From a virus (taxonomy: Duplodnaviria; Caudoviricetes): DNA of 64,000 bases. Where the stretch lies: IMG/VR virus record IMGVR_UViG_3300013383_000028, positions 18,873 to 82,872 of that record; one strand, given 5' to 3'. Position 1 is the first letter of the stretch, and every line of letters begins with the position of its first letter. Under the pieces are notes generated by a model. It saw nothing but the letters and a program-made list of their open reading frames with translations, was not told the origin of the DNA and made no database searches. The position numbers and the translations under genes were made by a program. Shown in pieces: positions 44,034-64,000 of the stretch.

Positions 44034-44069
44034 ACTGATTTTGTGGGCAATGCCCAGAAAGGAAACACA

Positions 44070-44840
44070 ATGAAGGATTTAATCACCATCAACAATAACG
44101 GCCAACCCGTTGCAAGCAGCCGGGATATCGCCGAACACTTCGAAAAAGAGCATCGGAATGTTCTTCGTGACATTGATGACCTCAGAAAAGATGTGCTCAA
44201 TTTTGAGCAGATGTTTTTCTCGGTCGAAATTCCAGATAGCTACGGCAGGCCACAGCGCGCGTACCTCATGAATCGAGACGGATTCTCGCTGCTGGTCATG
44301 GGCTTCACCGGGAAGTCCGCGCTCGAATGGAAACTCAAGTATATCGACGCATTCAACCGCATGGAAGCACAAATTAAAAGTCCACAGCCTATGACCACTG
44401 CCCAGATGTTTGCCATGCAAGCACAAGTCAATCTGGAACAGGAACAGCGGTTGGCGGCTCTGGAAAGTCGTGCGGAACGCAATGAACAGACCATGCAGAA
44501 AACGCTGGACATTTTCTCTGCACCTGCGGTCAGCCCCGACGATTGGACGGCGGCGATGAACCATCAGATCAATACTCTGGTGGAACGCTATGAGGCGAAT
44601 CACCAGAAATACCGCTCTGACCTCTACAAGGAGCTGGAATCTACTGCCGGTGTTGACCTCACGCTGCGGCAAACGCGGTTACGCAACCGCATGAAGAATG
44701 CTGGCGCGACAGTTTCGGAATGCAAGAACGTATCGAAGCTGCAGGTCGTTGCTCGTGACCGCAAGCTGCGTCCGATTTTTGAGAGCATCGTCCGCCGCCG
44801 CGCCGCGCTGTTATTATCAGCCAGCGAACAAACCATGTGA
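44070..44840 (+). CDS. Rha-family antirepressor/regulator (module 1)
   Basis: SSRDIAEHFEKEH..VLRDI, YLMNRDGFSLLVMGFTG..AL.WKLKYI..F. Confidence 0.85.
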   Translation: MKDLITINNNGQPVASSRDIAEHFEKEHRNVLRDIDDLRKDVLNFEQMFFSVEIPDSYGRPQRAYLMNRDGFSLLVMGFTGKSALEWKLKYIDAFNRMEAQIKSPQPMTTAQMFAMQAQVNLEQEQRLAALESRAERNEQTMQKTLDIFSAPAVSPDDWTAAMNHQINTLVERYEANHQKYRSDLYKELESTAGVDLTLRQTRLRNRMKNAGATVSECKNVSKLQVVARDRKLRPIFESIVRRRAALLLSASEQTM

Positions 44841-44854
44841 GGGAGGAATGAGCC

Positions 44855-45061
44855 ATGACAATCAGAGAGATCTATGAGCGCACACAGAATGTTGACGGCT
44901 GGATGATTGGCATCGACGGGTACGCATCGAAAGTTGACCTCGGCAATCCGGCCATTCTCGCCGGAATTGGAAAATTCCATGTGAAGACGATCTATCCGGA
45001 CGTCCACGACGGAAAGGTCGTTGTCGAACTGGACGTTGCTACGACTATCAATTCAGATTGA
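44855..45061 (+). CDS. conserved 68-aa protein, copy 1
   Basis: MTIREIYERTQNVDGW...ELDVATT; paralogues at 46039, 55064, 62326. Confidence 0.85.
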   Translation: MTIREIYERTQNVDGWMIGIDGYASKVDLGNPAILAGIGKFHVKTIYPDVHDGKVVVELDVATTINSD

Positions 45062-46038: not shown

Positions 46039-46254
46039 TTAATCGGTTACGATTTTCGTTGCGACTACCATTTCGATGACAGGTTTTCCGTCTTCCACAT
46101 CGACATCGAATGTGCTGACGTGAAAGTTCCCAACGCCGGCCATGATTGCGGGATTATCGAGGGCGATAGCATTAGCCAACCCATCTATGGCAATCATCCA
46201 ACGACCAACGTTCTGAGAGTGCTCATACAATTCCCTGATTGTCATTTGATGCAC
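46039..46254 (-). CDS. conserved 68-aa protein, copy 2 (most diverged)
   Basis: MTIRELYEHSQNVGRW...EMVVATKIVTD. Confidence 0.8.
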   Translation of the reverse strand: MHQMTIRELYEHSQNVGRWMIAIDGLANAIALDNPAIMAGVGNFHVSTFDVDVEDGKPVIEMVVATKIVTD

Positions 46255-46260
46255 CCTCCG

Positions 46261-47037
46261 TCACATTGCCTGCGGCCTGTCCATGATCGCGAGAATGCCG
46301 CGCTCTGTCAGGATTTCGTGAATCAGGAGACGGCCCTTCTGCGACCATTGCGTGAAGACACGGGTTCCTTTGCTCCCGTCGGAGTGGAGGAAGTGGAACG
46401 TCTTGGACTTGGTATACCCATTGCCCATGTGCTTCTTATAGAGAATCCATTGACCATTGACGTTGTGCTGGATTCCAGCTTCTTTTAGAATTTTGTTGAG
46501 CTGACGGGCACTCAGGTCGTAGTCAGCGGCGATCTGTGAGGTGGCCATGGTGGAGGTACTTTCGAGGATGGTATCTACGTACCGCTTGATTGGTTCGAAG
46601 TCCGCGATCATCTGCCGCTGCGCCTCGTTCTCCGCTTCTAATGCCAAACGCTTTTCTGCTTCATCAGCCAACGCACGAAGCGCGGAAGGGTAGTCCTGCG
46701 GAATTGCAAGCTGCTTTGCCCTCAGTGCTTCCTCCATTTTGTTGAAAGCCTCAATGTACTTGAGTTTCCATTCGAGCGCGGACTTCCCGGTGAAGCCCAT
46801 GACCAGCAGCGAGAATCCGTCGCGCGTCATGTAGTACATCGGATACGACTGACCGTTTTGCGGGTGGACATAGGTTGATTTGATGAACATGGGGGTGTCC
46901 CCAATTTTGGGGAGACCCCTCAAAAGTTCCTCAATGTCGCGCATAACGTGATCGTGTCGCTTGTCGAAGTGCTCCGCAATGTCTCTGCTGCTTGCGACGG
47001 GTTGGCCGTTATTGTTGATGGTGATTAAATCCTTCAT
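46261..47037 (-). CDS. Rha + KilAC/ANT antirepressor (module 2)
   Basis: Rha N terminus near-identical to 44070; C-term PQDYPSALRALAD...IAADYDLSARQLNKIL...WSQKGR. Confidence 0.85.
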   Translation of the reverse strand: MKDLITINNNGQPVASSRDIAEHFDKRHDHVMRDIEELLRGLPKIGDTPMFIKSTYVHPQNGQSYPMYYMTRDGFSLLVMGFTGKSALEWKLKYIEAFNKMEEALRAKQLAIPQDYPSALRALADEAEKRLALEAENEAQRQMIADFEPIKRYVDTILESTSTMATSQIAADYDLSARQLNKILKEAGIQHNVNGQWILYKKHMGNGYTKSKTFHFLHSDGSKGTRVFTQWSQKGRLLIHEILTERGILAIMDRPQAM

Positions 47038-47073
47038 TGTGTTTCCTTTCCGGACATTGCCCACAAAATCAGT

Positions 47074-47186
47074 TTGACAGAGGAAACACAACACGGTATA
47101 ATAGATTTACCGTGAGGTTTCCTCCGGGTCGGCTCCTTCTTTGTGACTTGTTTGCTAGACGTTGGCACAAAGAGGGGGCTTTTCCT
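47074..47186 (+). ncRNA. antisense sRNA of module 2 with consensus promoter
   Basis: TTGACA (47074)-N17-TATAAT (47097); same 14-bp stem as module 1, different loop, TTTT. Confidence 0.7.
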
Positions 47187-47367
47187 ATTTCTGTGTCAGC
47201 CGCGAGTGCAGGTCATTAACCATTTCTTCAAGCAAATCTGTTTTTGTCTTCCCAGATAGTTGTGCGCATTCTGAAAATTTCCTGACGGTTGATTCCGTTG
47301 CCCGAAGCGCAATCTGCTTGTTTTTCGGTTCTTCACCTACAATGGGGCGTCCGTATTTAGGCGACAT
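47185..47367 (-). CDS. ribbon-helix-helix regulator (module 2)
   Basis: GRP...KQIALRATESTVRKFSECAQLSGKTKTDLLEEMV RHH pattern. Confidence 0.7.
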   Translation of the reverse strand: MSPKYGRPIVGEEPKNKQIALRATESTVRKFSECAQLSGKTKTDLLEEMVNDLHSRLTQK

Positions 47368-47382
47368 CTTGATACCTCCTTT

Positions 47383-47423
47383 ATGCCTAGGCGTATTATA
47401 ATATATGTCTAGGCATATGTCAA
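47383..47423 (-). promoter_or_regulatory. module 2 promoter with paired palindromic operators
   Basis: TTGACA-N17-TATAAT; ATGCCTAGGCGT (47383) and ATGTCTAGGCAT (47405). Confidence 0.85.
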
Positions 47424-47476
47424 GTAGAACTTTCAATTTTTGTTCTACAGGGGAGTTACGGGTTGTCCCGCCCAGA

Positions 47477-49972: not shown

Positions 49973-50047
49973 TGGTGGGCCGTGCAGGTGTCGAGCCTGC
50001 AACCTGCCCGTTATGAGCGGGCTGCTCTGCCGTTGAGCTAACGGCCC
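49973..50047 (-). tRNA. tRNA with CAT anticodon, probably Ile2
   Basis: GGGCCGT/ACGGCCC-ACCA, loop CT-CAT-AA, Ile2-like body; T loop CTCGACA atypical. Confidence 0.8.
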
Positions 50048-50406
50048 GTCTATGACCGGCTTCACGTACCGGCCTTGAGGTCTTGCGCGCAGACAACAAC
50101 GGCAAATCAGGTGATTGCGCACCGGCGCTTAACAGTCGGAAGTTTCTAAAGCGTTCCCAAAGATGCTTCCCCAGCTTGGAAGGATTTCAGTTCGCCCCAA
50201 GCGTCGAACAAACATTTTGCAGCGTAGCTCCTATCCCGCTTTCTGGCCCATATAGCTGCATTGTGCCTCGTTCTCCTTGGACGCTGCGGGTACAGCGTCT
50301 TTAGCCGGGGCCGCTACGATTCACGAATCCGCTATTGCGTGCGTGAATGGATAGCCGTATTTTCCCCATGTTAAATATAGTCGCGCGGAGAACCCCAACG
50401 GGCGGC

Positions 50407-50483
50407 TGGCAGGGGTAGCAGGATTTGAACCTGCGCATATGGGAGTCAAAGGCCCATGCCTTAGACCGCTTGGCGATACCCCT
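50407..50483 (-). tRNA. tRNA-Gln(TTG)
   Basis: AGGGGTA/TACCCCT-GCCA, loop CT-TTG-AC, T arm GCAGG-TTCAAAT-CCTGC. Confidence 0.9.
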
Positions 50484-50623
50484 TTGTTGCCGGTCTTTCC
50501 CGGCCGTCAAAGCGCTTACATTCCCGAAGAGCTAATCCTTGGTATCGGCTGTATCAACCCGACGACACCGCTGCCAGATGCGGAGGCTTCATTCCACCGG
50601 GGGAAGTCATCCGATGGCGGGCA

Positions 50624-50690
50624 TGGGCGGCTTGGCAGAATCGAACTGCCTCGGGTCAGTTGCTCGTCGCTGCCCTTTACCAAATGCCGC
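50624..50690 (-). ncRNA. tRNA-like RNA / pseudo-tRNA
   Basis: GCGGC/GCCGC-CCA end and perfect T arm GGCAG-TTCGATT-CTGCC; D arm reduced, no canonical anticodon loop. Confidence 0.45.
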
Positions 50691-50852
50691 GTGTTGCCAC
50701 ACTGACGCAGTGGCCTCGGCTGTCTCTCCAGCTGTTACCGCTTCGTGTCGGCTGCTTGCGGTTAGCCCCCGTGGGTACACAATTCCGTCTGCCTGCTGTG
50801 ACCTATCTATGGCAGACCCGTTCAGGCTTGTACTTCGCCCGGTCACTGGACG

Positions 50853-50928
50853 TGGTGGAACCGACCAGACTTGAACTGGTGGCCTCCTGATTCCAAATCA
50901 GGCGCGCTTCCAACTGCGCTACGGCTCC
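50853..50928 (-). tRNA. tRNA-Pro(TGG)
   Basis: CCTGA-TT-TGG-AA-TCAGG; GGAGCCG/CGGTTCC-ACCA. Confidence 0.9.
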
Positions 50929-51116
50929 ATATTGGCCGTCTTCCCGCTTAGATTTTCACACGCTACCGGCAACTACGGTCCGAAGATCCGCAGCCCCTAT
51001 TCCGTCAGGTCAAACCGGTCTTGACGCATCAAGACAAGCGCAGTTTTCAGCGGGCATTTTCGTTCTCTGTGTGGCTCGACGGTCGCGCACACATCATCCG
51101 GGAGCGACCCGGCATC

Positions 51117-51203
51117 TGGCGGCAGATGGAGGTGTCGAACCCCACGGCTTTCACCGCGCACTGTTTTCAAGACAGGCTCCGAGGCCGCTCGAAATCATCT
51201 GCC
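51117..51203 (-). tRNA. tRNA-Ser(TGA)
   Basis: GGCAGAT/ATCTGCC-GCCA, loop CT-TGA-AA, long variable arm. Confidence 0.85.
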
Positions 51204-51210
51204 GTATTGG

Positions 51211-51284
51211 TTGGAGGTTTTGCACCATGCACGTTCAGGAGTCGAACCTGACCGTTTGGGGACTCGAACCCCGCTGCACCTCCA
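51211..51284 (-). ncRNA. tRNA-sized RNA with two T-arm hairpins
   Basis: TGGAGGT/ACCTCCA stem enclosing GGGG-TTCGAGT-CCCC and CAGG-TTCGACT-CCTG. Confidence 0.5.
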
Positions 51285-51501
51285 AGGATGACCGTCACCC
51301 TATATTGCACGGAATAGGCTTTTCTCACCGCGCTATGAACCTGTAACCTCACCGTTCTTTGTCTGGTTTCTTGTTGACCAGCAACAGCGCCATATCGCTT
51401 CAGATTCTAATGGCTTGCGCGGAATAGTGTCATCACCGTGCTATGAGCCTTCGCACAATCTCGCTCTTTGGGCGGCACGATGCCCCGCCATGATACCCAT
51501 G

Positions 51502-51575
51502 TGGACCGGTATACGAGGGTCGAACTCGCGCTCTCAGTTTGGAGGACTGATGTGCTACCACTACACCAATACCGG
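51502..51575 (-). tRNA. tRNA-Gly(TCC), atypical C33 and C1-G72
   Basis: TCAGT-CC-TCC-AA-ACTGA; CCGGTAT/ATACCGG-TCCA with U73. Confidence 0.8.
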
Positions 51576-51975: not shown

Positions 51976-52071
51976 GTGTACCGGGTTGAATGAAACCCGG
52001 ATGGCTCTAGTTTTCTTGGTTTTGACTGCCTACCTTCCCACTATGTGCTGTTCCAGTTTTCTTGGTTTCGC

Positions 52072-53183: not shown

Positions 53184-53219
53184 ATTATAGCAAATGCTCC
53201 AAGTCGAATATGTCGCACC
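53184..53219 (-). promoter_or_regulatory. 24-bp tandem 0A-box-like element + -10, copy 1 (recombinase)
   Basis: GGTGCGACATATTCGACTTGGAGC-N6-TATAAT on minus strand. Confidence 0.7.
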
Positions 53220-53223
53220 AAAA

Positions 53224-53715
53224 TCAGGAAATTCCAAGAAAATTATGATTTATTATATCCAGCTCTTCCATATATTTCGGGTGCACGTATCCTTCGAGTG
53301 CGCGGTCGATATGTTGCACTTCCTCGTCTCTTCCCATGATCCGAAGGAACGCGGCAGCAATGCGCCGATATGCTTTCCGCGCGTCGTTGAGCGGGGCCAG
53401 GAACTGCTCAAATACCGGCGTGTATCCGACAGGATAGTCCAACCCGAACAACTCCTTGTACCCCTGTGCAATCAGCGGCACAAATTCGTTCGCGAACTTT
53501 GATTCGTCCATGAGAAAAGCGTCCTTTTCGCCCTTGACACGCTTGCCGTCCTCGGTGTAGAACTCGCCGTGTTTTGCGGCGTATTCGTATGCCGCTCTCT
53601 CACGCGCCAGTGCGTCATTATACGCCTGTTCCGCCGCTTTCATTGCTGCATAGCGAGCTAAACCTACTACGCGCAATTCGTCCAACTGCTTCTGAATATT
53701 TGCTGTGATTACCAT
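53224..53715 (-). CDS. hypothetical protein
   Basis: AAGGAG SD; 163 aa. Confidence 0.65.
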   Translation of the reverse strand: MVITANIQKQLDELRVVGLARYAAMKAAEQAYNDALARERAAYEYAAKHGEFYTEDGKRVKGEKDAFLMDESKFANEFVPLIAQGYKELFGLDYPVGYTPVFEQFLAPLNDARKAYRRIAAAFLRIMGRDEEVQHIDRALEGYVHPKYMEELDIINHNFLGIS

Positions 53716-54044
53716 ACCTTTCTCCTTTGCGTTTGTCGCCGCGTTGCGATTCCGTGCTATTCCAGCGCAAAGCTGTGCGCTGCGTCACCGTTCCATGACG
53801 TTGCCACACCCGTCATCGCTGCACTACTCCATGGCTACGCACTTCTCAACTACTCCGTTGCACCGCCGAGCATTTCTTTGCCATCCCATTGCCTCTAAAA
53901 CCTATGCTATCCACTTCCGTTGCCAAGCATCGCGGCTCCGCGCGCTGCATTTCCCCGCCTTTGCATTTCTGTTCGCGTCGACACTTTTCTTTGCCATTCC
54001 TTTGCTGGACAATGCCGATCTCCGCATGCGCTAAATGTCATGCT

Positions 54045-54212
54045 TTAATACCCCCAATCCTGAATGATCTTCCCGTCCTTGACGAGCTGCGGGAAGAATT
54101 TCCCGCCGGTTGCTTCGTCACGTTTCCTTGCCGCTTCCCGTGCCTGGTCGACGCTTTTGAATGCGCCGATCAGAGTGGGGAAGTCTGCATAACTGTCGTA
54201 CAGTTCGTACAT
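54045..54212 (-). CDS. small hypothetical protein (55 aa)
   Basis: GGAGG SD; MYELYDSYADFPTLIGAFKSVDQAREAAR... Confidence 0.6.
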   Translation of the reverse strand: MYELYDSYADFPTLIGAFKSVDQAREAARKRDEATGGKFFPQLVKDGKIIQDWGY

Positions 54213-54225
54213 GCGCGTCCTCCTG

Positions 54226-54576
54226 TCAGATGAAGCTTACGGCTCCGCTCGTAATGAGCAGCGTGGCGGCTGTAGCGATGGAAGACACGATGACAACGAT
54301 GGACGCGATACAGCGGCGTTTACGTTCCACTTGCCGCTTGTAGGCCTGCTGCGCGTGCTTGGCACGGACTACGTCTGCGTGGTGGCAGACAAGATGCGAG
54401 AAAACATCTTCCGGTGTGAGTTCCGGAACATACATGAGAGCCTTTGACTTTTCCATTTGAATGATCTCCTTCCTTTTGATACGGGCATTTTTGTCCTTGG
54501 CAAACTTGCGTTTGCTCTTTGATTTTTGATCTACTGGATTTCTGCGCTTTTCCCGCTGATCGCGGGATTTTTTCAT
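54226..54576 (-). CDS. hypothetical membrane-anchored protein (start may be 54456)
   Basis: C-terminal TM helix; SD before 54456. Confidence 0.55.
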   Translation of the reverse strand: MKKSRDQREKRRNPVDQKSKSKRKFAKDKNARIKRKEIIQMEKSKALMYVPELTPEDVFSHLVCHHADVVRAKHAQQAYKRQVERKRRCIASIVVIVSSIATAATLLITSGAVSFI

Positions 54577-54932
54577 GCTGACAACCGGCGCTCGATTTCA
54601 CTTGCGCATTGGAAGACAAACATGACGTTTGTGGGTTTACCTCTTTCCGGATCGATTGAGTTTCCGAAGATCTCATACTTGTGAGTCGTATTGAGACTAT
54701 CGAACGCTACCTCAATGGCGTGGCGCATGCTGCGCTCAACACTGTTGACCGTTTTTCCATATTTCTTTGCGATTTCATAGTACACTCCACCTGGCTTTGT
54801 CGCGATGGTGCCTTCATAGTCTCCGTCGTAAGCACACTTGACAGCTTCCGTTAAATACCGGTATCCGTCGAGGTGTGCCGGAACGCCAAGTTCTTTGAAC
54901 AGATCATAGATTGCGCATTCGGTTTTTGTCAT
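54573..54932 (-). CDS. Spo0A C-terminal effector-domain protein, no receiver domain
   Basis: LGVPAHLDGYRYL..A, Y.EIAKKY..T..SVERSMRHAIEVAF, RGKPTN..F match Spo0A_C. Confidence 0.9.
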   Translation of the reverse strand: MTKTECAIYDLFKELGVPAHLDGYRYLTEAVKCAYDGDYEGTIATKPGGVYYEIAKKYGKTVNSVERSMRHAIEVAFDSLNTTHKYEIFGNSIDPERGKPTNVMFVFQCASEIERRLSA

Positions 54933-55004
54933 TTTGCATTCCTCCTAAAAATTTGATTGATAGTTTTTCTTCTACTGGGTTCCTTGTTTTGTCCCGATAA
55001 TCTC

Positions 55005-55050
55005 AATATAACACCCGCTCCAAGTCGAATATGTCGCACCTTATTCGACA
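55005..55050 (-). promoter_or_regulatory. 24-bp tandem 0A-box-like element + -10, copy 2 (spo0A-C), plus a perfect TGTCGAA box
   Basis: Motif 55017-55040, N6, TATATT; TGTCGAA on minus strand at 55050-55044. Confidence 0.7.
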
Positions 55051-55063
55051 CAGAATTGGACTT

Positions 55064-55270
55064 TTAATCGGTCTGGATCGTTGTCGCGACGTCCAGCTCC
55101 ACGACAACCTTTCCGTCGTGAACGTCCGGATAGATCGTCTTCACACGATAACTGCCGATGCCGTCGAGGATGGCCGGATTGCCAAGATCTACAGCTGACG
55201 CATAGCCGTCAATACCAAGAATCCAGCTATCGACGTTTTGGGTGTGCTCATAGATTTCTTTGATGGTCAT
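55064..55270 (-). CDS. conserved 68-aa protein, copy 3
   Basis: MTIKEIYEHTQNVDSW...ELDVATTIQTD. Confidence 0.85.
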   Translation of the reverse strand: MTIKEIYEHTQNVDSWILGIDGYASAVDLGNPAILDGIGSYRVKTIYPDVHDGKVVVELDVATTIQTD

Positions 55271-55283
55271 AATTTTCTCCTCC

Positions 55284-56057
55284 TTAGTTTTTGTGCATTT
55301 TAGCCGCTACCAACTGCGCGTATCTGCGTTGAACGATTCCTGCGAAGATTTCCCGCAGGCGCTGATCCTGTGCGATAACCGTCAGCTTGTTGACGGCCTG
55401 ACGGTCTGCGTATTTCGCGCCGCCGACCTTCATGCGTTCGCGCTGGTGCTTCACCCGGACTTCGAGGTTGCAGCCAGCGGATTCTTCCAGCGACTTATAG
55501 AGCGAGCCGGTTTCCTTCTGGAAGTTGAGATCGAACTCCATGCACATCTGCCGGATTCTGCTTCTAGTCTCCACCTGCCAATGATCGCGGCTGACGGTAG
55601 GGGAGGCGAGTGCGGAGAATGCCGTGCTCATGGTGTCGCGCATCTGCGTCTGGCCGGTTTCAAGAGCGGCAATGCGGCGCTCCTGATCTACCATAAGCTG
55701 CGCTTGCGCAAGCAACTGCTCGGCAGGGGAAAGTGACGCTTTCAAACGCTTCTGCATTTCCTCAAAAGCCGTAACATAAGCGGCTGTGAATAATACGCCT
55801 TTCTCGCCTGTCATTTTGTTTGCTACCATGTCGCAGCCTTTGCGCGTGAGAAAGTAGCGCGGGCGAGTTTTTCCTTGAGCGTCAACATAGTTGCTCGGAA
55901 CAAAGAAATCCAGCGAACGGAATTTTCCGTTGGCTAAAAAATCGTTGTATGTGCTTATCTTTTCCAGCAAGTCGGCGTGTCTCATTTCAATGGACTGCGC
56001 AACTTCTCTGCTGTCTAAAACCTCGATACCGTTGTTTGTGGTAACTTGCAGTTTCAT
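55284..56057 (-). CDS. Rha-family antirepressor (module 3)
   Basis: LDSREVAQSIEMRHADLL, YFLTRKGCDMVANKMTGEKG..FTAAYV..F; C terminus homologous to module 1. Confidence 0.85.
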   Translation of the reverse strand: MKLQVTTNNGIEVLDSREVAQSIEMRHADLLEKISTYNDFLANGKFRSLDFFVPSNYVDAQGKTRPRYFLTRKGCDMVANKMTGEKGVLFTAAYVTAFEEMQKRLKASLSPAEQLLAQAQLMVDQERRIAALETGQTQMRDTMSTAFSALASPTVSRDHWQVETRSRIRQMCMEFDLNFQKETGSLYKSLEESAGCNLEVRVKHQRERMKVGGAKYADRQAVNKLTVIAQDQRLREIFAGIVQRRYAQLVAAKMHKN

Positions 56058-56105
56058 CGTGTAATCCTTTCCGGAAGATATAAAAATCCCCCTATCAAAT
56101 TTGGA

Positions 56106-56239
56106 TTGACAGGGGAATATAATCACGGTATAATTAAAAAACCGTAAAGTATCCCCCATGTCATGCGGGTATTTTCGGGCAGCTCCCTTCTTTGTGCCGG
56201 TCGCCAAACTAGTCACAGGGAAGGGGGTATTTTATTTAT
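56106..56239 (+). ncRNA. antisense sRNA of module 3 with consensus promoter
   Basis: TTGACA (56106)-N17-TATAAT (56129); 15-bp stem GCTCCCTTCTTTGTG/CACAGGGAAGGGGGT + ATTTTATTT. Confidence 0.65.
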
Positions 56240-56333
56240 CGGATTCAAGATCTTTTTTAATCAGCTTCAAGATGTACTCTTTTAGGGTGATTTCCTCTTG
56301 CGCAAACCTCCTTAAAAAACACTTTTTTCTCAT
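56232..56333 (-). pseudogene. truncated RHH gene remnant (module 3)
   Basis: 33 codons ending AQEEITLKEYILKLIKKDLESDK, like the second RHH helix; at the RHH position of the other modules. Confidence 0.45.
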
Positions 56334-56464
56334 ACTACCATGCCATTCCAGTTTTTCAAGCACCTGCATCAAATTTTGTAAATTCTGACGAGATGCCTGT
56401 ACTTATACTTCTACGCAAAATCTGCGTTTGTCCCGCAGAATCGACCTTAAATTTTCTTGGTTTG

Positions 56465-56493
56465 TTGACATTATGGGAACGTCCCGTTAAAAT
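56465..56493 (+). promoter_or_regulatory. sigmaA promoter of type I toxin 2
   Basis: TTGACA-N17-TAAAAT. Confidence 0.7.
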
Positions 56494-56576
56494 AAAAAAG
56501 CCCACCTTCCGGTGGGCGGGGCGCTGCATGGAGGTGGCAGACGGTCGGCACTTCCCTTAAAAAGGAGGTGTTTCGC

Positions 56577-56663
56577 ATGGCTACATGGACTGAGATTTTC
56601 TCGTTCTCCACCGTACTCATCGCATTTGCGGGTTTGATCGTTCAGATCTGCAAAAAGAAATGA
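56577..56663 (+). CDS. type I toxin-like 28-aa peptide, copy 2
   Basis: MATWTEIFSFSTVLIAFAGLIVQICKKK; paralogue of 42364; SD AGGAGGTG. Confidence 0.75.
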   Translation: MATWTEIFSFSTVLIAFAGLIVQICKKK

Positions 56664-56768
56664 CCGCCATCGGCATAAGGCTAGGTCAAATCCCCTAGGC
56701 ATCCTTGGCTGACCGCTTGTGGCAGCGCCCCTTTTTCTTTATTATACCGAAAAAATGAAAAGTGTCAA
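56650..56768 (-). ncRNA. putative RNA antitoxin 2 (including its promoter)
   Basis: TTGACA (56768-63)-N16-TATAAT (56746-41), convergent on toxin 3' end. Confidence 0.6.
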
Positions 56769-57013
56769 TGAAAACCAGAACCGTCCGAACGTTGGCGGCT
56801 CTGGTTTTCTTGGTTTCAACCATTTTTGTGACCTTGCGGAAATGGTCGCTTGGTACTGACTTGGTGCAAACTTAAGACCAACTTAGAACTGACTTGCGTG
56901 TGTTTTCCGTGTGTTTTCCGTGTGTTTCCCGTGCGATTCTATTATTACAGCGTGGAATGTTGCGGCCAACTTGCAACCTGCTTGCGATCAATTTCGTGAG
57001 GTCACGAAGATGA

Positions 57014-57250
57014 TCAAATACGAACGACAGCAGACTTATACAGTTTCTTCACTCCGCCCACAACGGTCACTTCGCGGTTCTGCGAGACGATTTCCTTCCC
57101 GTAGGTTTCTATCGGTGAAATATCGTTGACGTCGCAGACGGTTTCCAACGCCGCCAGATCACCGGGATTCAATGGCAATCCGGTCGAAGTCGAGAAGAAT
57201 TTGTTTTCTTGGTTTATCCGGTACTCACCGGGCTTGTAGAACATAGGCAT
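57014..57250 (-). CDS. hypothetical protein
   Basis: GGAGG SD; 78 aa. Confidence 0.6.
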   Translation of the reverse strand: MPMFYKPGEYRINQENKFFSTSTGLPLNPGDLAALETVCDVNDISPIETYGKEIVSQNREVTVVGGVKKLYKSAVVRI

Positions 57251-57301
57251 CCCTCCCTGAAAATATAATATCGTGATTCTGCCTTGATTTCAAGCCAAGA
57301 A

Positions 57302-57892
57302 TCAAGCAGGGACACAAACGGCATATCCGTACCGCTTGATGTGCGACAGAGGATAATACACGTTCTCTGCACGAGAAATCCATACCGGATTCTTACGGTT
57401 CCTGATTCTGCCCTTCTCAAGAATTACGCTCCGACCGTTCTTCTGGACTGTGATCTGTGCACCAAGTGGGAGATTTTGAAGGCTGTTTGGGTCTTTCTTG
57501 GCAGCTGCTTTTTTCGCTGCGTTCTCCCGGCAGGCTGCACGCCACTCAATCGCCCATTTGTCATCGCGTGGGGAAAGCAGATTCAGAATGGAGACAGGGC
57601 ACTCACGTTCACACGGCCCCATGGATTCATCCATATCTTTGAACCCAAAGTTATATCCCTCGCGGCTGTCTACGCTCGTTAGGCAGATACCGGCGAAAAC
57701 ATAGGGCTGCTGGCCTGGGCGCGTCCTCTCGCAAGCGCCGTACCACGTCCGTCCCACCATTGCGGATTTCAGAACCCGGCACGTGTCTCCGGTTTCTTCG
57801 TTGTTCCACGTGTAAAGCTCGTCGCACTCTGCTTTGCGGTCGATGCAGCCCTTCCGCTTGTAGAATTTCGCACACTGCCAAGTCCAGCCCAT
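57302..57892 (-). CDS. DUF6927-like protein
   Basis: MGW..., VFAGICL, FGFKDMDESMGP...CP..IL.LLS, W...WR..CR. Confidence 0.65.
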   Translation of the reverse strand: MGWTWQCAKFYKRKGCIDRKAECDELYTWNNEETGDTCRVLKSAMVGRTWYGACERTRPGQQPYVFAGICLTSVDSREGYNFGFKDMDESMGPCERECPVSILNLLSPRDDKWAIEWRAACRENAAKKAAAKKDPNSLQNLPLGAQITVQKNGRSVILEKGRIRNRKNPVWISRAENVYYPLSHIKRYGYAVCVPA

Positions 57893-57983
57893 TTTAAGTA
57901 CCTCCTAGTTTTCTTGGTTTTCCTGTTCTGCTTTTGTATCTACCGGAAGCGGGAACTTCGTCCCGCCTCCGGCAAACTTTTTG

Positions 57984-59180
57984 TCAAATGGAATGATAGA
58001 GCATGCTATCGATATAGTCACCGATACAAATCGCCCACTTGTCGCCCTCACACGTCCGGTGGATTTTCGGTGTTCTGCGGATGACCGCGCCTGTCATCTG
58101 GTTTTTCAGCGTAACGGTCGCTGCGGTCGATTTGACAATTTCCCATACCTGTTTGACGCGATGCCCATCAACATATGCGCCGATTTCAAATGTTTCTCCA
58201 ACCTTGAATGGGTGAGTCGGCTTTTCCGCTTCCTGCGCCTTGACAATCTTAACGATCTCGGCGTATGCGGCAGTCAAGTCGAATCCGTTCGGCGTGCGAT
58301 AGATAAAGTTCTTCGGGCCTGTCCGCAGGACGGTGCAGTCGTTGTAATGCTTGATTTTCACAACATAGCCCGGCTTGATGTTCTCCTTGCTGAACTGCAC
58401 GCCGCCCAACTCGTCGATGCAGGACTGATAGTAGCAGATGCGTGAAATCTCAGATTCCAGGCGGTCTTCTGCGTCTTCAATCCAACGTTCGATTTCCCCG
58501 CGTTCGATTGGCGTACCGTCAAATCTGGTCTGCTGTTCGCCCATGCCGTCACATTCGAGCATGACATGGTAGTGGTCAAGGTTTTTCTGGATGGCCTTGA
58601 TGTTCTTCTGCGCGTCCTTTACACGACGGTCGCAGAATGCCTTGTCCTTGGAATTTTCTTGGTTCGCTGTTCTGCGGGCGATTTCTGCACGCTGCGCGTA
58701 ATACTCAGACTTTTTGAACTCCTCAAAGCCACGATCAAAGGCGGCAAACATGCGCTCGCGCTGCCGGGTGAACGCACGGCCTGCGGATGTGTTGATGTTC
58801 GGTTGTGTGAAGAACGCGATATCTCCGCGCCTGTCTTCAACGGGCTTTTGCAGAGCTTCGGCTCGCTGTGCCGCGGCGTCAGCTTTTATGTCCATGCGTT
58901 CCGCCCTGGCCGCTGCACGGTCTGCCTGCCGCTCCATCTTTTCTTCGAATGTCAGTTCTTCGCCGGTCTTGCCCTGGTACTCCGCACCAAGGTCTTTTGC
59001 TATGCGTTCAACATAGGAAAGGTTCGGCCGCTTTGCACGGCTTACCCAGCAGCTGCCACGGCGGGAGAAAAGAAAGTTGCTTCTGATTTTAGCCTTCGCT
59101 TCGTCCGGCATGGCCTGATACTCTTCCTTCGAAAAGTGAAGTTCGAGTTTGTCAGTCTCGCGGTTGATGATGTAATACAT
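57984..59180 (-). CDS. DUF3560-like protein
   Basis: E.K.ER...RA..RAERM...A, FTQPNI...GRAF.R.RER, ..YY..RA; start ATG 59180. Confidence 0.65.
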   Translation of the reverse strand: MYYIINRETDKLELHFSKEEYQAMPDEAKAKIRSNFLFSRRGSCWVSRAKRPNLSYVERIAKDLGAEYQGKTGEELTFEEKMERQADRAAARAERMDIKADAAAQRAEALQKPVEDRRGDIAFFTQPNINTSAGRAFTRQRERMFAAFDRGFEEFKKSEYYAQRAEIARRTANQENSKDKAFCDRRVKDAQKNIKAIQKNLDHYHVMLECDGMGEQQTRFDGTPIERGEIERWIEDAEDRLESEISRICYYQSCIDELGGVQFSKENIKPGYVVKIKHYNDCTVLRTGPKNFIYRTPNGFDLTAAYAEIVKIVKAQEAEKPTHPFKVGETFEIGAYVDGHRVKQVWEIVKSTAATVTLKNQMTGAVIRRTPKIHRTCEGDKWAICIGDYIDSMLYHSI

Positions 59181-59302
59181 TTTGAATGCCTCCGTATTCT
59201 GTAGTGTTTTTGTTTTCTTGGTTTTGTATCTACCTGAAATCTTGGTTTGTCCCGTAAATTGAAAAATTCCAAGAGAAAAGCAGGGGCATGATTCGTCCCT
59301 GC

Positions 59303-59524
59303 TCACCATCCGAAGTATATCTTTGCTACCGCGTATCTGATCTGCTCAAGGCTTGCCAGGCAGCCAGCGCAGGTTGCGTGATACTTGCAGTACTTGTATA
59401 TTTCGTACTGCCGCTCCTTCGGCAGATCTTCAAACTCGCCGCTGTTGATCATGTGCGTTTTCAGCAGTTCCAGATCGGTCAGATCTTCCATGTCAATCAT
59501 GGGGATGTTGACGTATGTTTTCAC
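59303..59524 (-). CDS. hypothetical protein
   Basis: GTG start, coupled to upstream ORF. Confidence 0.5.
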   Translation of the reverse strand: MKTYVNIPMIDMEDLTDLELLKTHMINSGEFEDLPKERQYEIYKYCKYHATCAGCLASLEQIRYAVAKIYFGW

Positions 59525-59713
59525 TCAGTAGTCCTCCTCGGCATTCAACCAAAACATTTTGAGCGGGTACACCGAACGCTTTTTAACGAGCCGTCTCAGA
59601 TTAGCGACAGCTTCCTCATAGTTCCTTGCTGGTATCTTAATCGAAATCAAGCGTCCATTTTCGTAATTCATGCCGAAAGTGTAGAGCTTCCATCCTGCGT
59701 CGTTTCTTTCCAT
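59525..59713 (-). CDS. hypothetical protein
   Basis: AAGGA SD; downstream of GGGAC motif. Confidence 0.55.
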   Translation of the reverse strand: MERNDAGWKLYTFGMNYENGRLISIKIPARNYEEAVANLRRLVKKRSVYPLKMFWLNAEEDY

Positions 59714-59807
59714 TGTTTATCCTTTCCGCCCGACTCGGGGCTGTCTGTTTTGCCCTTACACTTATTCTTCTACAGCAGGAAGCGGAAATGTCCCGCTTCC
59801 TACGAAA

Positions 59808-60140
59808 TTATTTTCTGCTATTGTGACCGTCTCCACCGTACTTATACCAGTCGGGGAGATACCCGGCATATTTTGCAGACAGGATTTCGTCATCCAGAAC
59901 GGTTTCCTTGGTTCCGTTGTCGGACATTATGAGGGAAACTAGAGCGTCGACGCAGTAGTCTTCGCAGCCTTGAAACGTCCACGTCAGGCAAGCGTAGTCC
60001 GTGACGGTCACGGTGTCGGTATCATAGTCCAGCGCTGTGATAAGCGCCGTATGTGCGTATGTGGTGATCGGCTTATGTGCTGCGCAGAGGATGGAGACGG
60101 CAGAAACGACGGCAAGCAGCAGCGCGATAATCTTTTTCAT
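59808..60140 (-). CDS. exported/membrane hypothetical protein
   Basis: Signal-peptide-like MKKIIALLLAVVSAVSILCAA. Confidence 0.6.
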   Translation of the reverse strand: MKKIIALLLAVVSAVSILCAAHKPITTYAHTALITALDYDTDTVTVTDYACLTWTFQGCEDYCVDALVSLIMSDNGTKETVLDDEILSAKYAGYLPDWYKYGGDGHNSRK

Positions 60141-60185
60141 GGTAGAACCTTTCTCCCCGTATGCCCGATAGGTCAGGCTTGGATG

Positions 60186-60848
60186 TTATGCACTCGGAAT
60201 ATCGTAGACTTTCTGCGATTCGTACCGGATGACTGCGCGCCCCTGATTGTCTTCACCGCCGTACATCGGACCGCAGAAGTTTTTGAGAATCGGCGCGCCT
60301 TGCAGCTCTACACGGCACGATACGCTGTGGAACTCCCCGGCAGTCTCGAACGCTTTTCTTAGATGCTCGACGGTTTCAAATTCCTCAATGGTCATGCGCG
60401 GTCGCGGGTCATCCGAATTTATGCTGATGACCATGTAGATTTTGCCCTTCTGTTGGATTTCTGCGAGGTGGACACGTTCGGATTCCTCGGCTAACTTCTG
60501 CTCCTGCGGGAAGCCGTCAACCAGCCCATAGAACATGTTCCGGTCAAAGCACTGAAAACTACGCGGATGCTCCCATGTGGTTTCCTGCCATCCGGAGAAT
60601 ACGGCCACAGTCTTAACTCCATAGAAACGCATGCCGTATAGCTTGCGACCGCCGCGCTTTTTGAAGTAGACCGTCAGCGCGTCTTTGTACTGCGCATACG
60701 GCTTGATCTCGGCGTATGCTGCGTTGACGTGGAGAAAATACACGCCGCCGAACTCGCTCTCGGTGACAATGGTCATTCTGGGGTTCTTGGAACCAGCTGC
60801 CGCGTTCACGGCATCGGCGATTTTTTGGAAGATTTCAAGCTGTTTCAT
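60186..60848 (-). CDS. hypothetical protein
   Basis: GGAGG SD; 220 aa. Confidence 0.65.
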   Translation of the reverse strand: MKQLEIFQKIADAVNAAAGSKNPRMTIVTESEFGGVYFLHVNAAYAEIKPYAQYKDALTVYFKKRGGRKLYGMRFYGVKTVAVFSGWQETTWEHPRSFQCFDRNMFYGLVDGFPQEQKLAEESERVHLAEIQQKGKIYMVISINSDDPRPRMTIEEFETVEHLRKAFETAGEFHSVSCRVELQGAPILKNFCGPMYGGEDNQGRAVIRYESQKVYDIPSA

Positions 60849-60936
60849 TGTATGTGACCTCCTGTTTTCTTGGTTTCCTCTACACCTTTATTGCTACCGG
60901 CGCAACTGCATTTGTCCCGCTGCGCCGGTACTTTTT

Positions 60937-61203
60937 TCAGTCGATTTCCTGCTCGGAAATCTCCCAACTGTAGATCGTGGCTTGCTCCAAGCAGTTTCGC
61001 CCGCACCGTCCGAGGTGAATGCTCATGGGTTCGTCCCAGGTCATATCCTCGTCCCAGAAATCTTCGTCGAACTCTTTGCGGATAGCGTCTGCTCCGACCT
61101 CGATCTGCGCACGGGCTTTCTCTACCGTTGAGAGAACGCCCAGGACTTCCACGCCCTCGTTGTCGGGCGTGTCCCAATGATGAACCACTACGTAAACGGT
61201 CAT
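60937..61203 (-). CDS. hypothetical acidic protein
   Basis: GGAGG SD before ATG 61203. Confidence 0.6.
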   Translation of the reverse strand: MTVYVVVHHWDTPDNEGVEVLGVLSTVEKARAQIEVGADAIRKEFDEDFWDEDMTWDEPMSIHLGRCGRNCLEQATIYSWEISEQEID

Positions 61204-61217
61204 GATTTTGCCCTCCC

Positions 61218-61376
61218 TCAAATGTAATACCAGACGATGAACTTGTTTTCGCTGCCGTCGGCGGACTGCCACGGCGTTATGCGTGCCTTGCGACGCTGTT
61301 TCTTGCGCGCTGCCACGAATGCGGCGGCTTGCTGTTCTGTGCTGAAAAACTCAAAGGTTTTGCGGTACTGGTTCAT
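61218..61376 (-). CDS. small hypothetical protein (52 aa)
   Basis: Hand-translated MNQYRKTFEFFSTEQQAAAF...FIVWYYI; SD GGAGG. Confidence 0.6.
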   Translation of the reverse strand: MNQYRKTFEFFSTEQQAAAFVAARKKQRRKARITPWQSADGSENKFIVWYYI

Positions 61377-61388
61377 GGTGGTTCCTCC

Positions 61389-61742
61389 CTATGCGATCTG
61401 CTCGGCAGGTTCTGCAAATTCCTGCGAAATTTTGAAAAGCATCATTTTTTTGAGCGCCTGTTTGCTCATGGTTTTCTCGTCGTAGCTGTTCGGCCTGTCC
61501 CAGACGAGGACGCGAAAAACACCGTTGTCGATGTCTGCGATCTCTCGGTATATGCAGACAGTCAGGCTTCCGGTGAAACAGATCTTTAGGGCGTTCAACG
61601 TGCTTGCATCGCCCCGGAAGATCTTCATTCCTGCATCCAGCAGGTGCGCGGCGGTCTCTTCGGAAAATGCAAGGGCGTGCTGTTCGACGTTCTCAAAACA
61701 GCCAAAAATGTTTTTCGCGTCGTAGTTTGCGATAAATTCCAT
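61389..61742 (-). CDS. hypothetical protein
   Basis: AAGGAGG SD. Confidence 0.6.
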   Translation of the reverse strand: MEFIANYDAKNIFGCFENVEQHALAFSEETAAHLLDAGMKIFRGDASTLNALKICFTGSLTVCIYREIADIDNGVFRVLVWDRPNSYDEKTMSKQALKKMMLFKISQEFAEPAEQIA

Positions 61743-61755
61743 GGTTCGTCCCTCC

Positions 61756-62103
61756 TTAGTCTATGATGTCTGAATCCAGCAAGATTTCGGAGTAGGCGAT
61801 CGTCGCACTGTTGCAAAGGTTGACGCGCTCCGACAGCTTCTGAAGCATGTCAATCGGCCCGGTAGCGCGGACAACATATCCGCGGCTAGGTGCGAAATCT
61901 CCGCCCTTGACAACGACCGAAAAGCGGGACATATAGCTTTCTTCTTCGTCGATTTCCTCAATGTCATCCATGCAGGCACCGCATTGCGCACAGAACGGCG
62001 TGATGTCTCTAACTTCTGCCCCGCATTCAGAACAGTGGGGTTCTCCCTGCGCGTTGTATACCCATTCGCCGAACTTCGGCCATGCTGCTTTCTTGCTTTC
62101 CAT
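61756..62103 (-). CDS. zinc-ribbon protein
   Basis: HCSECG...FCAQCGACMD. Confidence 0.7.
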   Translation of the reverse strand: MESKKAAWPKFGEWVYNAQGEPHCSECGAEVRDITPFCAQCGACMDDIEEIDEEESYMSRFSVVVKGGDFAPSRGYVVRATGPIDMLQKLSERVNLCNSATIAYSEILLDSDIID

Positions 62104-62117
62104 TTTACCGTCTCCTC

Positions 62118-62231
62118 TCACAGAATGAACTCGATCAACGAATCCGCACACAGAATGACAATGAACATTGCGGCGATTGCAGCGCCGGTCAGGAACATGT
62201 GGATTCCCGAAGTTTTGTAATAGTTTTTCAT
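62118..62231 (-). CDS. small membrane peptide (37 aa)
   Basis: MKNYYKTSGIHMFLTGAAIAAMFIVILCADSLIEFIL. Confidence 0.5.
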   Translation of the reverse strand: MKNYYKTSGIHMFLTGAAIAAMFIVILCADSLIEFIL

Positions 62232-62325
62232 ATGTAACTTCCCCCGTTCGGTAGTTTATCTTATATTTTTTGTTCTACCGAAGGGCGGGATTTGTCCCGC
62301 CCCTTATCGGAAAAACCGAACTTTT

Positions 62326-62532
62326 TTAATCGGTTTGGATAGTCGTAGCAACGTCCAGTTCCACAACGACCTTCCCATCATCCACATCCGGGTAGATCGT
62401 CTTTACATGATAATTCCCGATACCGGCGAGAATGGCCGGATTTCCAAGATCGACAGCTGACGCATAACCGTCAATACCGAGAATCCAGCTGTCAACGTTC
62501 TGGGTGTGTTCATAAATCTCTCTGACTGTCAT
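62326..62532 (-). CDS. conserved 68-aa protein, copy 4
   Basis: MTVREIYEHTQNVDSW...ELDVATTIQTD. Confidence 0.85.
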   Translation of the reverse strand: MTVREIYEHTQNVDSWILGIDGYASAVDLGNPAILAGIGNYHVKTIYPDVDDGKVVVELDVATTIQTD

Positions 62533-62547
62533 GGTTAAATCCTCCTG

Positions 62548-63294
62548 TTAATTTTCCAGAAGCGCCTTTTTCGGCGCGTGCTTGTTGATGAAGTATTTCT
62601 GACCGCGCGGGGTAACGCGTACAACCTTATCCAGCACTGTCCCAGCCTTTCCAACTCGCGGCGTTTCGCGCACGAAGAACAGACCGAGTTCCATGGCTTT
62701 CTGCGTCGGCATGTTGTAGTCCGTGCCTTTGTTCTTAATCAGATACCCTTCCTGACGCAGCTGTTCATACAGTCGGTTGCCGCCGATTTCATATCCGTTT
62801 TGAGAAAGAAGCTTCGCCATCTCGCGGACAAGGATGTTTGAATCTGCGCCGGTGACAGCTTCTGCGAAGAACACGGCAGGCGCGTCGGCTTCGATTTTCG
62901 CCTGCAACTGTTTCACCTGATTGTTTGCAATCTGCAAAGCCCGCGCCATGACCTTCTCCGGACTGTTCCACGCTTTTTCGAGTTCTACGAAGTACCGGCG
63001 GGCGATTTTGCCCTTTTCGTTGCGCTGCAACATACAGATTTCTTTTGCCATGTCAATGGTGATTGCCGCGTCATCGACGAAACGTTTGACCATTCGATTT
63101 CCTTCGTTTTGAACTCGCTCAATTTTGAGAAGGTTGAAATCGCGCCCCAACTCGAACCCGTATTCGCACATACGAGGGAACCAGTCGGCGTACTTTGTTT
63201 CAACTTCTAGGAATGCGTGCAAGTCACGCGCGGACAATGTGATTCGTTCAGGGTTTTCAGTGTTGATAGGGATGATTTTCGCCAATTCATTCAT
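62548..63294 (-). CDS. AntA/AntB + KilAC antirepressor (module 4)
   Basis: SARDLHAFLEV...YADW..RM..YGF..G.DF, ITIDMAKEICM; APAVFFAEAV...LVREMAKLL, MPTQKAMELGLF, VTPRGQ.YF. Confidence 0.88.
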   Translation of the reverse strand: MNELAKIIPINTENPERITLSARDLHAFLEVETKYADWFPRMCEYGFELGRDFNLLKIERVQNEGNRMVKRFVDDAAITIDMAKEICMLQRNEKGKIARRYFVELEKAWNSPEKVMARALQIANNQVKQLQAKIEADAPAVFFAEAVTGADSNILVREMAKLLSQNGYEIGGNRLYEQLRQEGYLIKNKGTDYNMPTQKAMELGLFFVRETPRVGKAGTVLDKVVRVTPRGQKYFINKHAPKKALLEN

Positions 63295-63340
63295 AAAATT
63301 GCTCCTTTGATCGTGTCGGTGGGGATTCATCCCTATTGCC

Positions 63341-63376
63341 AGCATAGCAAACGCTCCAAGTCGAATATGTCGCACC
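63341..63376 (-). promoter_or_regulatory. 24-bp tandem 0A-box-like element + -10, copy 3 (antirepressor 4)
   Basis: Motif 63353-63376, N6, TATGCT preceded by TG. Confidence 0.7.
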
Positions 63377-63415
63377 TATTTCTGGAAAAGGGTATAAAAA
63401 TCCCCGTGAATGTGG

Positions 63416-63530
63416 TTGACGATTCACGGGAAGTGTAGTAGAATATTTACACTTCGACCGTGAGGTCGTGGGGATTCCTCGTGCTGTCTGTCCGCCAAGA
63501 AAGAGCAGCGCGGGGAATTTTTATTTTTTG
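63416..63530 (+). ncRNA. antisense sRNA of module 4 with promoter
   Basis: TTGACG-N17-TAGAAT; CGACC-GTGA-GGTCG hairpin; 13-bp terminator + U tract overlapping the RHH stop. Confidence 0.65.
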
Positions 63531-63706
63531 TTGTCCAATTCAGCCCGAACAAGAGAAATTCCTTTGTTCACAACGTCAGTCCTAGATATTTGCAACTCTT
63601 TCGCGCAGCTATCGAGCGTTTCGAGTTCCTCTGTGCTCATGCGAAGCTGCAAACTTTTGTCTCGCTTGCTTGGCCCCTTAATTGGACGGCCTTTTGTTGG
63701 CAACAT
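63521..63706 (-). CDS. ribbon-helix-helix (CopG-like) regulator (module 4)
   Basis: GRP...RDKSLQLRMSTEELETLDSCAKELQISRTDVVNKGI. Confidence 0.8.
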   Translation of the reverse strand: MLPTKGRPIKGPSKRDKSLQLRMSTEELETLDSCAKELQISRTDVVNKGISLVRAELDNKK

Positions 63707-63762: not shown

Positions 63763-63872
63763 CCATAAATTTCTCGATCTCAGGAAAATTTTCTATCTAT
63801 CTTTATATCTACAGGAACAAGTGATTTGTCCCGGAAAATCACATAAAATATGTGCCGATCTGACAAAAGAGT

Positions 63873-63899: not shown

Positions 63900-64000
63900 G
63901 TATATATACGGATATTTATTCATAAAATGTAACACAAGGCGAACAGACCGCGAACATTGTTACACCAGAGATAGAGAATAGAGATAGAGATAAAGAGATT

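Follow-up and report, generated by a model that had tools for sequence, protein, structure and literature searches.

A repeated 24-bp promoter element with 0A-like boxes in a gut phage encoding an effector-only Spo0A protein

The repeated 24-mer and its promoters

Does a phage that encodes the DNA-binding domain of the sporulation regulator Spo0A also carry, in its own promoters, the sites that such a domain would read? The question is raised by the final 64 kb (the window) of the 82.9-kb IMG/VR contig IMGVR_UViG_3300013383_000028, where one 24-bp sequence (the 24-mer) stands upstream of the genes for a tyrosine recombinase, an antirepressor and an effector-only Spo0A protein (Spo0A_C). All genes of this region lie on the minus strand. 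A first-pass annotation had taken the 24-mer for a Spo0A-binding element, containing 0A boxes, that defines a phage regulon. By sequence analysis and comparison with related phages, the 24-mer is a genuine element that looks functional and is confined to this phage; that a Spo0A-type domain of phage or host binds it is a tentative reading, to which we give a little less than an even chance.

The phage has a genome of about 100 kb, represented by the 82.9-kb contig and a 19-kb contig (L017) that fills its gap. Both ends of L017 are common with the window's contig (99 and 77 identical bases), and it aligns to exactly the segment of a relative, G2, that is absent from that contig, from which we take L017 to complete the genome of the same phage or of one nearly identical to it. 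The assembly split into the two contigs because of an AGAGATA-rich low-complexity repeat, which occurs in two places in the phage genome (window 63950-64000, L018:1-99 and both L017 ends). G2 is a complete 109-kb relative with terminal repeats, syntenic with the window's contig and with a recombinase, Spo0A_C and Rha protein that are 83%, 77% and 95% identical, respectively. The other relatives compared were L058, L061, L064, L068-71, L072-75, L086, L087, L089, G003, G004 and G005.

An exact search found the 24-mer three times in the window (53196-53219, 55017-55040 and 63353-63376), as first annotated, with no further copies there at up to 3 mismatches and none in 100 shuffles. Downstream of each copy, in minus-strand reading, come 3 nt, TGn and a -10 hexamer, which starts 6 nt past the 24-mer as previously described and reads TATAAT, TATATT and TATGCT, respectively (Table 1). 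The TGn, which forms the last 3 of these 6 nt in all three window copies and makes the -10 an extended one, was missed in the first reading. The remaining promoter features were described correctly. There is no -35 at 16-18 bp, a consensus scan returned no canonical promoter at the three sites, and the -35-like GCGACA lies within the element, 21 bp from the -10. Two further copies are present on L017, one exact and one with 2 mismatches, both rightward and each followed by gtt-TGg-TATAGT. The promoter class has five members, three in the window and two on L017, all of the form 24-mer, 3 nt, TGn, TAnnnT, with the 24-mer spanning about -42 to -19 and GCGACA at the same distance in every copy. 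Judged by sequence, sigma-A-type promoters are their best explanation. Promoters for sigma-54, extracytoplasmic function (ECF) or sporulation sigma factors were considered and rejected, as by inspection neither spacing nor -10 fits.

This phage and G2 have orthologous -10 hexamers and leaders, and only the upstream element differs; at the G2 antirepressor promoter, for example, TATGCT is kept beside a different element. Since the -10s differ among the copies yet match the orthologous -10s of the relative, the element was what got exchanged. When 18-nt cores of the 24-mer were searched in the viral collection, L017 alone was matched. The same cores gave 14 matches in the genome collection and 25 in the metagenome collection, none with the flanks or the -10 architecture, so that these are chance or coding matches.

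0A-like boxes and the phage Spo0A domain

Read on the plus strand, the 24-mer contains AGTCGAA and, after TA, TGTCGCA, each matching TGTCGAA at six of seven positions, as the first-pass annotation had noted, and keeping G2, C4 and G5. In the direction of transcription these are TGCGACA at -40 to -34 and TTCGACT at -31 to -25, two boxes arranged head to tail. Spo0A contacts G2, C4 and G5, and mutating them lowers binding about ten-fold (PMC3485338). Given the genome base composition, a random 24-mer would hold such a tandem pair with a probability of about 8e-5, or about 3e-5 when the contact bases are required. We consider the likeness to a pair of Spo0A boxes too close to set aside. The Spo0A_C promoter, and only this one, has in addition the perfect box TGTCGAA that was also annotated before (55044-55050, TTCGACA on the plus strand). 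It covers -52 to -46, 3 bp upstream of the 24-mer and in the opposite orientation to the boxes within it. No general excess of 0A boxes was found in the genomes: G000 has 10 where 15.6 would be expected, and G2 has 13 where 20 would be.

Sites resembling those of Spo0A recur at the Spo0A_C operons of relatives. A perfect 0A box near -50 of the Spo0A_C promoter is found in three core backgrounds, namely in this phage and L058, in L072-75 and L086, where its orientation is opposite, and in L089, whose core is of the G2 type described below; by chance one would be expected with a probability of about 1.4e-3 at each promoter. TTCGA occupies the same place in four of the six core promoters of the L072 lineage. 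G2, L064 and L058 carry a cluster of 0A-like boxes 3 bp apart ahead of an operon that runs through antirepressor genes and ends in Spo0A_C. The cluster immediately follows a terminator and ends 12 nt ahead of TGn-TATNGT; all three boxes can be recognised in G2 and L064, and in L058 the middle one is degenerate. Both its 12-nt distance to the -10 and its box variants are the same as in the 24-mer. Only 5e-4 triple clusters would be expected per 109 kb, and these clusters are very probably Spo0A sites. A box matching at six of seven positions also occurs 4 nt before the TG of a rightward promoter adjoining the gene for an XRE/CI-like repressor (TGc-TACGAT; L018:5585-5615 and G2 34040-34065), in this phage and G2 and not in G004.

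The protein itself consists of a complete Spo0A effector domain alone. It matches profile positions 1-104 of 104 of PF08769 with 88.7 bits against a cut-off of 25, and its full length aligns to PDB entries 1fc3 and 1lq1 (4e-19 and 1e-18) with VER..RHAIEVA in register. The recognition helix with its Glu-Arg-x-x-Arg motif, VERSMRHAIEVA, aligns to VERAIRHAIEVA of 1lq1 and 1fc3, and E-R-x-x-R is invariant in 10 family members. No match to the receiver domain PF00072 was found in phage contigs G000, G001 and G002, and the 119-amino-acid reading frame has its own ribosome-binding site and promoter. These results bear out the earlier description of a protein that keeps the VERxxRHAIE helix and lacks a receiver. 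Its closest full-length Spo0A counterparts, from gut Clostridia, are only 37-43% identical, and for this reason Spo0A_C appears to be an old phage lineage of the domain rather than a recent capture. In the alignment to 1fc3 and 1lq1 the FG motif is kept and adjoining residues in the helix-E region are changed; helix-E residues are those which we take to be required for sigma-A-dependent activation. Phosphorylation is not required for the isolated DNA-binding domain of Spo0A to bind its targets (PMC3485338). In an unrelated phage group with Spo0A_C (L006-8) the gene forms part of a tight operon, and no 0A boxes were found near it.

Promoter-core alleles and competing explanations

If the 24-mer were an ancestral Spo0A site, related phages would be expected to keep it at the same genes. 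In G2 it has no match even at 8 mismatches. G2 instead has its own element of about 30 bp at four equivalent promoters (recombinase, antirepressor and two rightward ones), consisting of a TTGACA-like hexamer, an A-tract, CATTTGC and 8-9 nt before the -10, and the recombinase promoters of L061, L064 and L087 are of this type. The G2-type element, a promoter architecture in its own right, has a consensus TTGACA about 33 bp before the -10 (L005:9660-9710; G2 6743, 14825 and 24264; L061:2590-2650 and 10269). Other lineages have short-core alleles in the same register as the 24-mer. L072-75 and L086 share a 25-nt allele at four to five promoters per genome, including those of Spo0A_C, the recombinase and an antirepressor, while L068-71 have another allele at two to three promoters per genome and L058 has its own. 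All short-core alleles have a -35-like hexamer 21 bp from the -10. A block at -27 to -20 (A-C/T-TTG-G/C-AG) is common to this phage, the L072 type and the G2 type, and a shifted variant of it occurs in L058 and L069. Family-wide, the genes served are those for the recombinase and an antirepressor, rightward early operons and, in genomes where it has a promoter to itself, Spo0A_C. The comparison shows that all relatives have a promoter core at the same genes, of which the 24-mer is the allele of this lineage.

Several observations weigh against Spo0A as the reader of this core. In L058, the closest relative, whose Spo0A_C is 94% identical, the core is changed at 8 of 24 positions, including one of the CG cores. 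Both boxes have intact CG cores only in the allele of this phage; the alleles of the L072 and L068/L069 lineages and the G2-type element have none, with Spo0A_C recognition residues unchanged throughout. The equivalent promoters of relatives thus function with elements that a Spo0A-type helix would not be expected to read. L061 Spo0A_C has the helix VERSMRHAIE just as in this phage, yet its promoters carry the G2-type element, and L086 and L072 share one core allele but differ in their Spo0A_C helices. Because the recognition residues of Spo0A_C do not follow the alleles, the core as such is not a conserved Spo0A site, and the idea that the promoters sharing the 24-mer form an ancestral Spo0A regulon has to be given up. 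In each of the five copies the gap between the boxes of the element is 2 bp, where documented Spo0A dimer sites have boxes 3 bp apart (PMC2731898). All 24 bp are identical across copies, including the flanks outside the boxes, and identity of this extent would suit a footprint that is larger or of another kind, or a very recent spread. Two apparent regularities among the alleles were also discarded. Covariation of the helix residue after Glu-Arg (S, N or D) with the first box in four lineages is broken by L086, which has Cys there and an L072 core, and a tie between extended -10s and 0A-like cores is broken by L068 and L069, which have TGn without boxes.

One explanation for these data is that another phage-encoded factor, for example an activator of an early or middle promoter class, binds the core, that its 0A likeness is part inherited and part coincidence, and that Spo0A input is limited to the -50 boxes and tandem clusters. 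This is possible, although we hold it to be clearly short of probable. Each lineage has its own core allele at the same three to five promoters, the -27 to -20 block is common to this phage and the L072 and G2 types, and cores without 0A cores coexist with unchanged Spo0A_C recognition residues. Most non-G0 cores moreover have neither a usable -35 nor a correctly placed TGn, so that some activator would be needed. One candidate is a 241-amino-acid helix-turn-helix (HTH) protein, HTH241 (L017:4293-5018, plus strand), with a C-terminal HTH that shows weak similarity to sigma region 4. Between lineages the protein is conserved at 62-84% identity, and in all of them its gene lies about 1.1 kb upstream of one copy of the core. 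The recognition helix hardly varies from lineage to lineage, which rejects HTH241 as the allele-specific factor; it could nonetheless be a common factor reading the shared block. However, no factor with DNA-reading residues that co-vary with the core alleles was found among the XRE repressor, HTH241 and Spo0A_C, all of which are invariant where alleles differ. This explanation also leaves unaccounted for that the changes in this lineage converge on two boxes in which every contact base is present and whose distance to the -10 equals that in the clusters.

The Spo0A reading would account for that convergence. In this lineage the core has acquired two head-to-tail 0A-like boxes, and its changes raise the 0A match relative to the other core alleles; from the L058 allele to the one here, the matches rise from four and five of seven positions to six of seven in both boxes. 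A Spo0A-type DNA-binding domain would then occupy the 24-mer and place five promoters under one switch. The occupant would be either the receiver-less Spo0A_C of the phage, active without phosphorylation, or phosphorylated host Spo0A (Spo0A~P) at the onset of sporulation, and the Spo0A_C gene would be autoregulated via the extra perfect box at its promoter. In its fullest form this reading holds that the lineage has moved about five promoters of an ancestral regulon onto Spo0A boxes, namely those of the recombinase, the antirepressor, two early operons and the regulator's own gene, with the phosphorylation-independent Spo0A_C as driver. Host Spo0A~P could start a self-reinforcing switch and the phage protein could fix it, so that excision and antirepression are coupled to the host's decision to sporulate. 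We regard this whole chain of steps as unlikely, though worth stating. What survives of the regulon first proposed is its effector-only protein, the head-to-tail boxes, the 21-bp geometry and the 0A boxes at Spo0A_C operons of relatives, and what speaks against it is the 2-bp gap and the variation of the alleles.

Should Spo0A-type binding be real, we lean modestly towards activation rather than repression, by analogy. The boxes replace the -35, as pho boxes do, and the 21-bp spacing is that reported for spoIIG and spoIIE. Repression of the kind known from phage phi29 is possible as well, since the proximal box reaches -25 and the extended -10 in all five promoters could work alone.

It is improbable, in our estimation, that the 24-mer has no dedicated binder and is a promoter module spread recently within the genome by recombination or gene conversion, its identity reflecting youth. 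Four of the five copies are 100% identical, compared with differences at up to 3 of 24 positions among L072-lineage copies, and the recombinase-promoter copy and copy A have about 16 further upstream bases in common. The element boundaries are nevertheless sharp, beside -10s orthologous to those of the relative, and a lineage-specific element at the same gene set in every lineage would be hard to obtain without a trans-acting partner.

A prophage repressor operator, for an XRE/CI-like or a ribbon-helix-helix (RHH) protein as in classical immunity regions or P22 immI, is very improbable despite the RHH gene directly upstream of the antirepressor promoter, the low identity between this phage and G2 (XRE repressor 32%, RHH protein 49%), which have different elements, and the likeness of G2 and L061 in both RHH beta-strand and G2-type element: the 24-mer has no dyad symmetry, and each protein has an inverted repeat of its own. 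The XRE repressor, which is encoded outside the window and which the first-pass annotation had named as the alternative binder, is made unlikely by its HTH, identical in the L072 lineage (G004/G005; 74% identity overall) where the core differs; the XRE-cro spacer holds a perfect 10-bp inverted repeat and no 24-mer-like sequence. RHH proteins are likewise unlikely binders. The RHH promoters next to antirepressor genes are canonical with their own inverted repeats, and four of the five 24-mer copies are not beside an RHH gene. RHH beta-strand and element do co-vary in G2, L061 and this phage, but nearly the same RHH_5 stands in differing contexts in L064 and G003; one lineage has an L072-type promoter after it, and a lineage of the G2 type has no element there.

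Gene context and relation to known systems

The promoters and the genes around them are listed in Table 1.

Table 1. Promoters carrying the 24-mer in the window and neighbouring genes.
Feature	Position	Strand	Remarks
Recombinase promoter	53184..53219	-	24-mer (53219-53196), att, TGc-TATAAT (53189-53184); no canonical -35
Spo0A_C promoter	55005..55050	-	TGTCGAA (55050-55044), taa, 24-mer (55040-55017), ggg, TGt-TATATT (55010-55005)
Antirepressor promoter	63341..63376	-	24-mer (63376-63353), gtt, TGc-TATGCT (63346-63341)
Tyrosine recombinase/integrase, 362 aa	52072..53160	-	Phage_integrase 1.8e-17; 83% identical in G2
Conserved 163-aa protein, last gene before recombinase promoter	53224..53715	-	
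Effector-only Spo0A protein, 119 aa	54573..54932	-	PF08769 2.8e-25
68-aa protein, always after antirepressor gene	55064..55270	-	paralogue of 62326-62532
Rha-type antirepressor-like protein, upstream of Spo0A_C promoter	55284..56057	-	Phage_pRha 3.2e-21
68-aa protein, second copy	62326..62532	-	paralogue of 55064-55270
AntA + KilAC antirepressor, 248 aa	62548..63294	-	PF08346 2.7e-21, PF03374 1e-24
RHH repressor-like protein, 61 aa	63521..63706	-	phrog_876 transcriptional repressor 5.4e-10

The RHH gene upstream of the antirepressor promoter has its own canonical promoter (63762-63734) and terminator. Between this gene and the antirepressor promoter lies a canonical antisense promoter (TTGACG, 17 nt, TAGAAT; 63416-63444, plus strand), which would yield a short RNA ending at the bidirectional terminator and in this recalls sar of the P22 immI region. 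The window has four cassettes in which a gene of antirepressor type (Rha, AntA or KilAC) is followed by one for the paralogous 68-amino-acid protein (44016-45061 on the plus strand; 46039-47436, 55064-56057 and 62326-63706 on the minus strand), two of them preceded by a small RHH gene. No homologue of the 68-amino-acid protein was found in G2. The XRE repressor gene (L018:4875-5501, minus strand) adjoins a second integrase gene with a zinc ribbon, and its product has, by inspection, a hydrophobic C-terminal stretch like a membrane anchor.

Two more repeats are found on the minus strand. The first consists of CGGGACAAA, 12-13 nt and GTAGA, and lies just after promoters or in 5' leaders (plus-strand coordinates 54530-54555, 56410-56435, 59229-59254, 62274-62299, about 54950-54980 and 63805-63835). 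It also directly follows the -10 of the Spo0A_C promoter, occurs in equivalent places in G2, L058, L061 and L064, and may act as an RNA element of the leader or as a binding site for a protein. The second, AAACCAAGAAAAC, occurs six to seven times (52003-52022, 52049-52068, 56797-56816, 57200-57215, 57901-57920, 59205-59224 and 60857-60876), in several cases immediately 5' of the ribosome-binding site of a gene on the minus strand. Genes for four tRNAs (Met, Gln, Pro and Gly; 49973-51575, minus strand) lie between the structural genes and the recombinase gene. From their translations only, the genes preceding them resemble those for HU, a MazF/PemK-type toxin and a cysteine desulfurase.

The arrangement of the 24-mer promoters has parallels in well-studied systems. 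Pho boxes, the sites of the response regulator PhoB, replace the -35 and activate through sigma region 4. They too are direct repeats immediately upstream of the -10 in -35-less promoters, but protein family and repeat length differ, and the likeness is an analogy only. The lambda CII regulon (PRE, PI and PaQ) is controlled by one phage factor through a direct-repeat site at -35-less promoters, among them that of integrase. The set described here would be analogous in these respects; there is no sequence or protein relationship, however, and the set includes an antirepressor. The spoIIG and spoIIE promoters of Bacillus subtilis, which Satola, York, Baldus and their colleagues are said to have characterised, are reportedly Spo0A-activated sigma-A promoters with a -35-like hexamer 21-22 bp from the -10, overlapped by 0A boxes that reach about -50. 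In this phage, by comparison, the proximal box extends to -25, the two tandem boxes stand 2 bp apart, the -10 is extended, and regulation may fall to a DNA-binding domain on its own.

For the Bacillus phages phi29 and Nf, sites of the host Spo0A are well known from early and late promoters as well as the origins (PMC2731898), so that target sites in a phage genome, which the first-pass annotation had presented as the new part, are not new in themselves. In phi29 and Nf, perfect and imperfect 0A-box pairs overlap or adjoin the core promoter and couple phage development to sporulation, a role proposed here by analogy. Only the host protein binds the boxes of phi29, where they act by repressing canonical promoters or preventing activation. 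This phage differs from phi29 in having its own receiver-less Spo0A domain, -35-less promoters, a 2-bp box gap and an identical element at five promoters. Truncated, effector-only spo0A homologues in human-gut phages have also been published (Schwartz et al. 2023, PMC10294663), in support of the earlier statement that gut phages carry such genes. They likewise consist of the Spo0A_C domain alone in phages of gut Clostridia; in that case, action on the host sporulation network was proposed, and no target sites or cis elements in the phage genomes were reported. In the literature searched, no report of target sites for a phage-encoded Spo0A domain was found. What is new is the combination of candidate sites at the regulator's own promoter and operon across the family, one lineage with a whole promoter class bearing them, and a core with lineage-specific alleles.

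Truncated spo0A is among the most striking sporulation genes in gut phages, and this family provides short candidate sites for its product in the phage's own promoters, in the form of a perfect box at its own promoter, clusters ahead of the operon in relatives and a two-box element at five promoters. Sister phages with other elements at the same promoters are natural controls, which makes the role of the phage Spo0A directly testable. Apart from Spo0A, the family-wide core with its lineage-specific alleles represents an unexplained regulatory class in large gut phages. If the Spo0A reading is true, the phi29 paradigm, in which host Spo0A reads the phage genome, would extend to temperate gut phages that carry their own constitutive copy of the regulator.

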